Part shown: piece after piece, positions 1 to 3,081 of the stretch
Position numbering within the stretch: the first letter of the stretch is position 1
Layout: each line of letters opens with the position of its first letter
Origin: Desulfomonilia bacterium
GTDB taxonomy: Bacteria; Desulfobacterota; Desulfomonilia; UBA1062
Direction: 5' to 3'
Assembly: GCA_050014195.1 (NCBI GenBank)
Contig: JBEKDT010000024.1
Location: 1-45,787 of the forward strand
DNA length: 45,787 nucleotides
Notes under the pieces: model-generated
What the model was told of the DNA's origin: nothing
Database searches by the model: none
The model's input: only the letters and a program-made list of their open reading frames with translations
Made by a program: the position numbers and the translations under genes

Positions 1-1420
1 CGCTTTGCCGCAGCGACTCCTCTGTTTGCTTGCGCTCAGTAATGTCGCGAGAAACCCCGAGAATATCCATAGGCTTACCCTCATCATCCCGTCTGAAGGT
101 TGCTGTGAACTCGATCCAGACAGTATTGCCGTCTTTGCGGATCAATTCAAACTCCATAGTCCTTGGCCTGTCCGGATCAATAGCTTCCCCGCTGTTTTCT
201 TTGGCCAGCTCTTCCGATAAGACCTGAGCTGCAAGGGCATATGATGAGGACGTAAGCAGTTGTTCAGGGCGCAGGTTCTGTATCTCTTCCGGGGTATACC
301 CAGTAATCCGCACAACTGATAGGCTCACGTAAGTGAATTGTAAGTTCAGGTCTATGACCCAAATGGTATCGTGTACGTTTTCAGCGATCATCCGGTAGCG
401 GTGCTCACTCTCCTTTAAAGCCTCCTCCGCGAGTTTGCGCTCGTTAATATCAATGACTGATATGATCCCTGCGGGTTTTCCCCCCAGCATAGTGGAGGCG
501 CCTGAGAGATCCACCCATAATTCCTTTCCCTGCTTGGATATGATTTTGAATTCGTATCTTTGGATTGTGGACTCTCCCTGTTGGCGTTTCTGCCCGCGTT
601 GCTGGATCAATTGCTTGTAATCGGGATGTACGATATCCCAGAAATTCATGGATCTAAGCTCATCGGCAGAATAACCGCTGATCCTTTCCACTGCCGGATT
701 TGCATAGGTCCATTTGTCATGCTGATAGAGCATGATCGCTGTGGGTGTGGATTCTGCGAGGACCCTGAATTTTTCTTCACTCTCGCGCAAGGCCATCTCA
801 ACTTCTTTGCGCTGTGTCATATCGTGGACAACCCCGATTCTCCCGAGAGGTCTGCCAGCATTATCCCATATGGTCTTGGCATTGACCTCGGCGTGGATCT
901 TCCTGCCGTCGGCTGCGATGACGACGGTTTCGTACAAAGGGGTGTCTTCTCCTGATAGCCCTCGCCTGAACATATCCAAAGTGAACTCCCTGAAATCAGG
1001 GCTGACGATGTCAATGTAGGGACGGCTAATGAAATCATCGGTACGATATCCGGTGAGTTTTTCGAACTGGGGGCTGAGATATGTGAATCTGCCTTGTATA
1101 TCGAGGGAGAAGATGACGTCTATAAGGGTATCATAAATTAATTGATACTTTCTTTCACTCTCCTGAGGAGACGCTTCCACCCTCTTTTTCTTTGACATCA
1201 GTATTTGTGCATGTAAGCCGAAGAGGACGATGATTGCCAGAAAGGCTGTCCGTACAGCTACCTCATATGGATTCAGGTTCAGGATCTCTTCAATGAGTCC
1301 GTGGTTATGGTAAACAAGAACGTGAACCATTGATTCACTGATCCAGAAGACAATCCCGATTAAAATGCTGAGATAAACCAGGTGTTCTGAAAACCTGGAA
1401 CGGTTACCACTGTCGATCAT
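1..1420 (-). CDS. Membrane-anchored multi-PAS sensor protein (likely histidine kinase or similar), 3'-partial, runs off the window start
   Basis: Manual minus-strand translation from ATG at 1420 (RBS AAGGTGGAGA) is open to position 2. Two hydrophobic N-terminal segments precede three PAS/PAC repeats with ESEEKFRVLAE / ESEHRYRMIAEN linkers and HDMTQRK / IDINERK / RDITERK ends. Not in the ORF track because it has no stop in the window. Confidence 0.85.
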   Translation of the reverse strand, partial: MIDSGNRSRFSEHLVYLSILIGIVFWISESMVHVLVYHNHGLIEEILNLNPYEVAVRTAFLAIIVLFGLHAQILMSKKKRVEASPQESERKYQLIYDTLIDVIFSLDIQGRFTYLSPQFEKLTGYRTDDFISRPYIDIVSPDFREFTLDMFRRGLSGEDTPLYETVVIAADGRKIHAEVNAKTIWDNAGRPLGRIGVVHDMTQRKEVEMALRESEEKFRVLAESTPTAIMLYQHDKWTYANPAVERISGYSADELRSMNFWDIVHPDYKQLIQQRGQKRQQGESTIQRYEFKIISKQGKELWVDLSGASTMLGGKPAGIISVIDINERKLAEEALKESEHRYRMIAENVHDTIWVIDLNLQFTYVSLSVVRITGYTPEEIQNLRPEQLLTSSSYALAAQVLSEELAKENSGEAIDPDRPRTMEFELIRKDGNTVWIEFTATFRRDDEGKPMDILGVSRDITERKQTEESLRQS

Positions 1421-1840
1421 TCTCCACCTTTATCGTAGATGTTTGACATCCTGAATAGATGCTATGAGTTTATTTCGTCATAAATGAATAAAAGATTACA
1501 TTTTCCCCTTATATAGTCCAGGGCACTCATCACTTAGACAGTAGATTCCTGAGATAACTGAGAGCTTTCATAGACCCACATTATTCAAGGTCTCCTGAAG
1601 AGATCGACACAGGTTGACACCTCATCTGTTAATGCGGCTTATGACACGCAACCTATCAAAAACAACTTCTTCCCAGAATAATGATATCGTGTGCCAAGTC
1701 CAATGGTTATTCCAGAGCATAGATTTCTTTTTATAATCATCGCAAAAGATGGGCATTGAAGATCATAGATTACATACCATTCATTACGATTAACCTTGAT
1801 TGAAGATTACTTCGATAGATTAACGGTTTTAAGATGCCTG

Positions 1841-2481
1841 GGAGAGTCAGCCGGGGGAATTTCACCCCCAGCTGCTCGTAGAACCGGACGTGAACCTCTC
1901 AGCTCATCCGGCTCCCATTGTTCAGCCAATCGTATAGCTTGGCTTGGCGATACTCATTGATTCCTCCCATTTCTGGTTGATCAATAAATACCTCCTGAAC
2001 AACACAGCCCCTTCGCTCCACTCCCATTACAGGAGCTTCTTCTCTACTACGAGCTGTCCCGCCCCTGTGCCTGGCATCGGTACTCTCATCCTCGGGGGGC
2101 CTCTCCTTGGATTTCTCCCTTCTCATCCAGACGACAGGTTCTCACGTTCCGTGTAAAAGCCCGTATCGGATTCACACCATCTCTACACCGGATGCCGCTC
2201 AGACAGTAAACAGGTTTCCTCTGAGCTGTTCCCAGAGTTAGTTTTGGACCCTGGTTTTGACATCATCTGTGATCATTTTCGATGCCTCATCGATTGGTTC
2301 GCTTTCGCTGGTCTCTCCGATACTCACCTGACGCATTCCTTGCGCCTTTTCCCTAACGCTCACCACCATGGCTCTTTACCATCGCAGCTTAGGGCGGTTT
2401 GAAGCCTGCTCCTGTAAACCGACTCCGAGGGGCCCACCCTCATCTCCTACACAGCATTGCCTCTCAGCATTCGTGACACAC
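1841..2481 (-). mobile_element. Group II intron (IIB, bacterial class D-like) ribozyme lacking its RT/maturase ORF, about 640 nt
   Basis: 5' end GTGTG at 2481. Domain V GAGCCGGATGAGCTGAGAGGTTCACGTCCGGTTC (1914-1881) has the AGC triad, GAGA loop and AC bulge. Domain VI hairpin has a bulged A at 1847. EBS1 AAAACT (2245-2240) and EBS2 ATGATC (2276-2271) are complementary to exon GGTTTT and GATCAT. The 3' boundary is uncertain by 1-2 nt. Confidence 0.92.
1922..1957 (-). pseudogene. Collapsed remnant of the intron-encoded protein (MSIAKPSYTIG*)
   Basis: GGAGG RBS then ATG in domain IV. The 11-codon ORF ends 7 nt before domain V, where IEP stop codons normally lie. No RT motifs remain. Confidence 0.65.
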
Positions 2482-2704
2482 AAAACCGATGATCTACAGT
2501 AAGAACCTACGCAGCCTAAAGCTTCAAATGAGATCGTGGCTGTTAGGCTGTGCGCTGACGTTGATTCTCTATTCGCAATATGTGATCCTGACTAGTGCAC
2601 ATTATTACTTCCTTCTACTTACCACTCATCCTTTATATATCATCTCTCATCGCTATCTTTTCCTGCTTGAATTCGTATCATATCTTCTGTACATCCTGAA
2701 TTCA

Positions 2705-3081
2705 GGTTGAAGGAGTGCTGGTAATCGCTGGCGCCTTTTTTTGGCGCGAGAGGAAAGTCCGGGCTCCACAGGGCAAGGGTGGTCGCTAACGGCGACCGGG
2801 GGTGACCCCAGGGAAAGTGCCACAGAAAACAAACCGCTGCCAGTAAAGGCAGTAAGGGTGAAACGGCGAGGTAAGAGCTCACCAGTTCCCCGGGTGACCG
2901 GGGAAGCTTGGCAAACCCCACCCGGAGCAAGACCAATAGAGGGGCTATAAGGGCTGCCCGTCCCGCCCCTGGGTAGGTCGCTTGAGGTAACAGGCAACTG
3001 TTACCCTAGATGAATGATTACCGCCCGGCTCACAGGAATGCGATCCGGGCAACAGGACCCGGCTTATGCGCTGCTTCAACC
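2705..3081 (+). ncRNA. rnpB: RNase P RNA, bacterial type A
   Basis: Conserved GAGGAAAGTCCGGGCTC, GGAAAGTGCCACAGAAA, GGGTGAAACGG, GGTAAGAGC, GGCAAACCCC and ACAGGACCCGGCTTAT motifs. P1 helix GGTTGAAG / CTTCAACC closes the ends. Confidence 0.97.

Follow-up and report, generated by a model that had tools for sequence, protein, structure and literature searches.

A class D (RmInt1-type) group II intron without its ORF in a Desulfomonilia genome, probably mobilised by an IEP supplied in trans

Introduction

Group II introns that lack an ORF are elements of a kind already known. For the ORF-less TeI3 introns of Thermosynechococcus elongatus, mobilisation in trans was shown experimentally (Mohr et al. 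2010, PMC2882425). As described in that report, these introns carry a domain IVb deletion that leaves N- and C-terminal ORF remnants, one breakpoint is common to copies at different sites, EBS/IBS pairing with the flanks is good, the EBS sequences diverge to fit new sites, and twintrons occur. C.te.I1 of Clostridium tetani is presented in a review as a lone ORF-less intron that only splices (PMC4424553).

RmInt1 is the reference for class D (IIB3) introns in the present work. The IEPs of this class are reported to consist of RT and maturase domains without D/En domains and to end in the motif L-x3-A-x3-P-x-L-F-[V/A]-H-W, and trans action has been reported for RmInt1-type IEPs (PMC4615759). RmInt1 itself is described as ending in CC with C at exon position +1, and its splicing is reported to be inefficient (PMC4238363). 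Its home site lies in an insertion sequence, and a persistent 5' RmInt1-like fragment, FRE652, is on record (PMC5894124).

Here we describe an intron in a 45,787-nucleotide contig of a Desulfomonilia bacterium (JBEKDT010000024.1, assembly GCA_050014195.1), the whole of which is referred to as the window. The closest precedent is TeI3, with which the present family shares the domain IVb deletion with ORF remnants, the common breakpoint, the EBS/IBS pairing, the EBS divergence, and the twintrons. It differs from TeI3 in belonging to another intron class, in having En-less parents, in its number of copies (two complete and one fragment, against the 17 reported for TeI3), and in that the assembly contains no driver IEP. 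We consider it highly probable that the window intron is a non-autonomous derivative of a class D intron, which lost its ORF by a deletion in domain IV and was moved by an IEP acting in trans. Intron surveys based on RT ORFs miss elements of this type.

Results

The window intron is 641 nt long, lies on the minus strand (2481-1841), and contains all six domains. Covariance-model searches placed two group II models in it above their gathering scores, RF01999 (group-II-D1D4-2) at 2441-2326 (114.8 bits, gathering score 36, E 4e-23) and RF00029 (DV/DVI) at 1916-1841 (52.0 bits, gathering score 40, full model 1-77); the sole other Rfam match in the window is to RNase P RNA. Three lines of evidence for the intron boundaries concur to within one base: position 1841 is the end of the DV/DVI model, three different 3' flanks begin to diverge after CTCTCC, and the two halves of a repeat profile abut at 2482 and 1841/1840. 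Since profile positions 13-72 are followed by positions 72-127, the two flanks together make up one copy of this repeat. No gene is interrupted; for the annotation of this genome, the spacer beside rnpB is filled by an intron and is neither a gene nor an assembly error. The features of the locus are as follows.

2-1420, minus strand: PAS-domain sensor gene, downstream of the intron and running off the window (Pfam PAS families, E 8e-42)
1786-1840, minus strand: 3' half of the host repeat (nhmmer match 1841-1786, model positions 72-127)
1841-2481, minus strand: ORF-less group II intron, RmInt1/class D type (Rfam, repeat halves, diverging 3' flanks)
1844-1877, minus strand: Domain VI, intron nt 605-638 (Rfam, consensus)
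1880-1915, minus strand: Domain V, nt 567-602, with AGC triad and GAGA loop (RF00029 alignment, consensus)
1917-2003, minus strand: shrunken domain IV, nt 479-565 (consensus structure)
1922-1957, minus strand: remnant mini-ORF MSIAKPSYTIG* (comparison with parent IEPs)
2004-2057, minus strand: Domain III, nt 425-478 (consensus; the private change U439A breaks one pair)
2061-2141, minus strand: Domain II, nt 341-421 (RNAalifold consensus mapped onto the window copy)
2142-2476, minus strand: Domain I, nt 6-340 (covarying consensus structure, Rfam)
2245-2240 and 2276-2271, minus strand: EBS1 AAAACU and EBS2 AUGAUC, in Domain I
2481-2477, minus strand: intron 5' end GUGUG (sequence)
2487-2482 and 2494-2489, minus strand: IBS1 GGUUUU and IBS2 GAUCAU, in the 5' repeat half (pairing from sequence)
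2482-2541, minus strand: 5' half of the split host repeat copy (nhmmer repeat profile, model positions 13-72)
2709-3081, plus strand: RNase P RNA gene, divergent from the intron (RF00010, 318.2 bits)

The 5' GTGTG, domain V, and domain VI lie where a preliminary description of this DNA had placed them. In the predicted structure of Domain VI, the bulged branch-point A is at 1847, 7 nt from the intron 3' end.

By its likeness to RmInt1-type introns and to RF01999, the window intron is assigned to the RmInt1 (class D, IIB3) lineage, of the endonuclease-less type. A blastn search against plasmids matched 634 records, which include S. meliloti introns annotated as ltrA (7-9 places per record) and a Salmonella ltrA intron. 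The ribozyme can be aligned end to end with the S. meliloti element and is 72-76% identical to it and to the Salmonella intron (75% over 460 nt), where the S. meliloti element is termed RmInt1-type from its organism, copy number, 419-aa IEP, and C-terminal motif. The window intron ends in ...CUCUCC and is followed by an exon C at 1840, which by analogy with the C at +1 of RmInt1 is presumed to be IBS3. The preliminary description had taken the 3' end, ACTCTCC in place of a terminal AY, as a ground for doubting activity. Because RmInt1 likewise has CC and then C (PMC4238363), this ending is native to the lineage, and its reading as a defect was rejected. Unlike RmInt1, the window intron has no ORF, and a small hairpin that is present in relatives, close to where domain I begins, is missing from it.

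Scanning metagenomes with a 32-base pattern from the DIV/DV border retrieved 13 contigs. Seven of these (L049, L050, L051, L056, L058, L059, and L060) have an IEP C-terminal coding region 5' of DV, five (L048, L053, L054, L055, and L057) are ORF-less, and one (L052) extends only 6 bases upstream, too short to tell its ORF state. Across the 524 nt of the 5' ribozyme, the full-length parents L050 and L059 share 95.2% identity with the window copy. Their IEP, of 412 aa, has matches to RVT_1, GIIM, and TIGR04416 (438.7 bits, cut-off 300), and a profile search with the L050 protein gave no match to an endonuclease family. This protein therefore matches the RmInt1-type IEP in having RT and maturase without endonuclease, and it is 59.5% identical to the 419-aa S. 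meliloti IEP. The class D C-terminal motif is kept in part only (P-x-L-F-x-H-W): it reads P-R-L-F-C-H-W in L050, P-E-L-F-H-H-W in L051, and P-Y-L-F-S-H-W in L058, so that the core is present and the L, A, and V/A positions are changed.

Comparison with these parents identifies the deletion. Domain IV of the window copy contains the mini-ORF MSIAKPSYTIG* and no other coding sequence, which had been read as an IEP start joined to its stop, and both ends proved to be homologous to those of full-length parents. The L050 IEP start, VGITKPYEIS, aligns with MSIAKPSYTI of the window, and the end of the IEP in other parents (...GGC TGA) coincides with the end of the mini-ORF. The mini-ORF consists of the IEP start and about ten codons joined in frame to the last codon and the TGA stop; given this homology at both ends, the deletion is in frame and extends from about codon 10 to the last codon. 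Its junction lies at about 1928/1927. The CCAAG-CCAAG tandem (1947-1938), previously placed at the junction, was rejected as the deletion scar, because by parent comparison the junction is ∼12 nt further on; the tandem is a 5-nt insertion within the N-terminal remnant that makes the terminal hairpin longer.

The remaining domain IV comprises a basal stem and two hairpins. One contains the start codon and a Shine-Dalgarno-like GGGAGGA; the other, the terminal one (AGCCAA/UUGGCU, 1944-1924), occupies the former place of the ORF. Covarying pairs are present in the basal stem (alignment columns 521/611 and 525/607) and in the terminal hairpin (582/603). The retained hairpins may be a binding site for the IEP.

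For the window intron folded as a single sequence, the free energy is -238.2 kcal/mol (z -4.95 relative to 20 shuffled sequences). A consensus fold was computed with RNAalifold from 10 natural ORF-less relatives, which belong to four lineages ∼70% identical to one another. It has the six-domain architecture and 192 pairs, and at 82 of these a compensatory change occurs in at least one sequence. The window copy keeps 187 of the 192 pairs and the second genome copy keeps 190. These results, together with the Rfam matches, agree with the preliminary reading of an ORF-less group II intron with a complete ribozyme, and the concern that elements of domains I-III might be missing was not borne out, as the consensus extends from DI to DVI. 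The window copy has three private changes, A47G, G172C, and U439A, at columns that are invariant in the other nine aligned introns, and G172C and U439A each break a conserved pair. In this structural model the ribozyme architecture of the window copy is complete, and its catalytic competence is not assured.

The home site of the window intron, like that of RmInt1, lies in a multi-copy element. In RmInt1 this is an insertion sequence (PMC5894124), whereas here the target is not an IS transposase gene but a dispersed repeat of ∼125 nt, for which nhmmer gave 60 hits in the genome (E <= 1e-3). Copies of the repeat (for example, window 2541-2482 plus 1840-1786, C3:51032-51167, C5:35866-35728, and C21:22027-22162) have short inverted ends and often form same-direction arrays with 0.7-1.5 kb spacing, upstream of unrelated genes; no shared downstream gene family was found among 48 copies examined. 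By eye, the arms of a hairpin in the repeat covary (CATC with GATG, CTTC with GAAG), and the intron is inserted at the top of its 5' arm; a consensus fold of 24 repeat copies returned no structure (energy 0.0).

The repeat could be a MITE-like element or a shared leader or promoter. A scan of L004, which holds three intact copies, reported no Rfam match for it at the gathering threshold. An integron attC was rejected by eye, as neither strand shows both halves of an R''/R' core pair (RYYYAAC ... GTTRRRY). Promoters of the sigma-54 and sigma-70 types were also rejected: inspection turned up no persuasive match, and a scan around the window copy gave 2 sites where 2.4 were expected.

Recognition of this target can be read from the exon-binding sequences. 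As previously described, EBS2 and IBS2 form 6 perfect pairs and EBS1 and IBS1 form 6 pairs with one G-U, and an identical 12-nt 5' flank precedes three of the three copies of the intron in the genome. In relatives with other targets (L053, G007a, and G003b), the EBS1 loop covaries with the 5' exon. Since the flank is common to all three copies and EBS1 changes with the 5' exon, the pairing is beyond chance. By its offset from G329 of RmInt1, the invariant G at intron nt 271 is proposed as EBS3; a search by covariation resolved no site for it. A recognisable site is present in 59 repeat copies. Full pairing with both EBS1 and EBS2 is seen at 12 of them, of which 11 carry no intron, a count that speaks against ongoing spread.

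Other introns use the same repeat. In a sub-lineage consisting of L053, L048, L049, and L058, the insertion is 11 nt upstream on the same strand and EBS1 is changed accordingly, and a sister family of 675-nt ORF-less introns (G002, G003, and G007) is inserted on the opposite strand. In all, three intron lineages land on the host repeat, at three positions and on both strands. In one metagenome contig (L058:1541-1848), two family introns occupy their respective homing positions in a single repeat copy, head to tail and with only 11 nt between them.

A search for other copies and for a full-length parent with an RT ORF succeeded in part: it found two more copies in the genome, and it found parents in metagenome contigs and none in the assembly. 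The three genome copies are those in the window, at C12:100325-100964, and at C12:102522-103064. The copy at C12:100325-100964 has the same junction as the window copy and is 98.7% identical to it over 524 nt. By our own count on the alignment, the 3' flanks of these two complete copies match at ∼30 of 43 positions; because the flanks differ, the copies are separate insertions in diverged repeat copies and not parts of a duplicated segment.

The identical junction is found at four insertion sites, each another repeat copy, namely the window, C12:100325-100964, L057, and L048 (L054 is the C12 locus again), and L053 and L055 have a junction variant within 1 nt of it. The EBS sequences of L055 mismatch its own 5' exon, and this contig may be recombinant or chimeric. 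As one junction recurs at four sites (two in this genome), the most likely course is that the deletion came first and that the ORF-less form was then spread by an IEP supplied in trans, although the shared junction could also have been spread by recombination between copies.

Partial copies were observed as well. The third genome copy (C12:102522-103064, or L004:6523-7065) is a 5' fragment with DI-DIII and the start of DIV. It breaks off 2 nt 5' of the IEP start codon, and a PEP-CTERM-type gene comes next. The fragment is similar to FRE652, which is described as retaining DI-DIII and part of DIV (PMC5894124); the window copy, unlike FRE652, is complete through DVI. An 89% identical copy in genome G002 (G002:C4, L017:2022-2330) lacks DV/DVI and all of the IEP except its C-terminal third (RT7 and part of the maturase region), a different route of decay in the lineage of the window intron. 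A fragment in genome G003 (G003:C45) is 96% identical to the window intron and shares a 45-nt flank with it; as this flank is part of the repeat, it does not tell whether the two loci are orthologous.

The assembly is a metagenome bin of 29 contigs with an estimated completeness of 100%. Searches of these contigs with RVT_1, GIIM, and tblastn found no cognate IEP and thus none of the related IEP-encoding introns that a comparison with TeI3 would lead one to expect in the same genome. RVT_1 had one match, an RT on C10 that scores 144 bits with TIGR04416, below the cut-off of 300; GIIM had one match, in a 59-aa open frame only; and tblastn with the parent IEP recovered the C10 RT only, at 24% identity. 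This RT (C10:107599-108909, minus strand; L005:1114-2424) is a free-standing 436-aa, K/N/I-rich protein with RT_UG17 as its best PADLOC match, and no intron RNA matched beside it.

The identical 3' end of another group II intron (...CTACTCGAC) is present at two contig ends (C9:1-123 and C26:29546-29668), and the interior of that intron, with any IEP, is missing from the assembly. Many contig ends in the assembly have sequence in common. Because multi-copy elements are under-assembled, the missing IEP is weak evidence of its absence from the cell.

Related genomes and plasmids were also compared. Within the genus, 5 of 15 genomes searched have matches to the intron, and 4 of the 15 (G000, G002, G003, and G007) have complete ORF-less copies; in three of these four, no IEP of the same family is assembled. 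A maturase-domain (GIIM) search in G003 and G007 found none. Only 3 of the 634 matching plasmid records have a contiguous ORF-less form. Unannotated ORF-less class D mini-introns lie on plasmids of two other bacterial classes, one of 658 nt in Methylomonas (CP157007.1, L033:1456-2113) and one of 645 nt in Rhizobium leguminosarum (NZ_CP030762.1, L034:1451-2095); the Rhizobium mini-intron clusters with the RmInt1-type intron of S. meliloti at 100/100 support.

A tree of the 5' ribozyme (17 rows) has three clades with 100/100 support, each containing ORF-bearing and ORF-less members. The ORF state changes at least five times on this tree, a count from which three rows, those of truncated copies, were excluded. 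A tree constrained to unite the 7 ORF-less rows, a group defined once the tree was known, is worse by 394 log-likelihood units (p-AU 1e-42). The remnant in each lineage consists of the start, 7-10 codons, and the last 1-8 codons. On this tree, ORF loss is independent in at least three well-supported clades, with near-identical breakpoints.

Discussion

The above results suggest the following history. An in-frame deletion in domain IV would have removed ∼1.2 kb of the RT/maturase gene and left the ribozyme, a ribosome-binding site, the start codon, about ten codons, and a stop. The intron would recognise its target, the 5' arm of a hairpin in the ∼125-nt dispersed repeat, by base pairing of EBS2 and EBS1 with the 12 bases 5' of the insertion point, probably with a further pair between the invariant G and the C at +1. 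As its own protein is gone, efficient splicing and retrohoming would occur only when the IEP of a full-length relative is in the same cell, and it would be a borrowed IEP that spread the intron to several repeat copies in the past. The suggestion of a non-autonomous mini-intron that needs an IEP in trans, made in the preliminary description, is supported by the existence of 95% identical parents, by the junction at four sites, and by the reported trans action of RmInt1-type IEPs.

Present activity of the window copy is doubtful, because the assembly contains no matching IEP, 11 matched sites are empty, and there are three private changes. The earlier caution that activity is not assured stands on the missing cognate IEP and the private changes, and not on the 3' end.

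The same observations are compatible with a dead relic, in which full-length introns were present at each site, homologous recombination or gene conversion carried the deletion from one to another, and nothing moves or splices now. The lack of an IEP in the assembly, the empty state of 11 of the 12 fully matching sites, the changes at invariant positions, the 5'-only, decay-like fragments (C12:102522-103064, G003:C45, and G002:C9), and the recombinant appearance of L055 are all in keeping with such a history. It requires, however, that a full-length copy was present at each of four sites and was then converted, and it sits poorly with the 187-190 of 192 structural pairs that the ORF-less forms retain. 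In addition, the same pattern in Thermosynechococcus was traced by experiment to trans mobilisation (PMC2882425), and in a metagenome bin with collapsed repeats at contig ends a missing IEP carries little weight. We therefore regard a dead relic as unlikely.

An intron that is self-sufficient in vivo and only splices, as C.te.I1 does according to PMC4424553, would also be expected to have the complete ribozyme seen in the consensus structure, and it would account for an assembly without an IEP and for the empty GIIM searches of G003 and G007, which have ORF-less copies of the sister family. We consider this very unlikely for the window intron, as no gene is interrupted and splicing would not be selected for, RmInt1 splicing is reported to be inefficient (PMC4238363), and the start-codon hairpin is kept in domain IV, as expected if an IEP must bind.

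That a full-length intron was collapsed in assembly and the missing ORF is an artefact, for which the fragmented bin and the presence of other introns at contig ends might be cited, was rejected and has a negligible likelihood, given that contigs of four of the four runs examined (four study codes) bridge the junction over 1854-1987 or more with 0-1 differences and that the identical junction is present on separate metagenome contigs with other flanks. One run has a contig from the 3' exon that covers 1600-1987 with zero differences. The stretch 1600-2700 is present at 0.91-0.97 of sampled words in 14 runs, labelled peat and wetland metagenomes; in RNA runs at most 0.06 of the sampled words of the stretch are present. 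The run evidence consists of contigs and speaks to presence only. No loose contig ends were seen at the junction among the best-supported ends listed, and a full-length variant may exist at the window locus in the population.

Based on these considerations, we favor a non-autonomous class D intron moved in trans. The series of ORF losses to which it belongs lends itself to two questions, what a class D IEP requires of domain IV and how non-autonomous introns originate. A broader and, in our view, improbable proposal is that class D introns here repeatedly lose their ORF at the base of the domain IVb stem and give rise to SINE-like mini-introns, a guild on one repeat that persists without a group II IEP, with breakpoints set by a built-in mechanism. 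If this were true, persistence without a group II IEP would imply either help from a host or unrelated RT or long persistence in an immobile state, and the convergent breakpoints would reflect, for example, an RT jumping across the stem base during cDNA synthesis, beyond selection on survivors.

Additional elements were noted during these comparisons. Twintrons occur in the family, with an inner element of ∼1.9 kb in domain VI (L052:61-1990 and L055; in L041, from G002:C18, after DV), and G002 has a 457-aa maturase-bearing ORF near its twintron. In the genome of the window intron, Rfam models D1-D4-3, D1-D4-1, and DV/DVI match within 629 nt at C7:212120-212748 (minus strand; L010:1501-2129), which suggests a second ORF-less mini-intron that belongs to another structural class.
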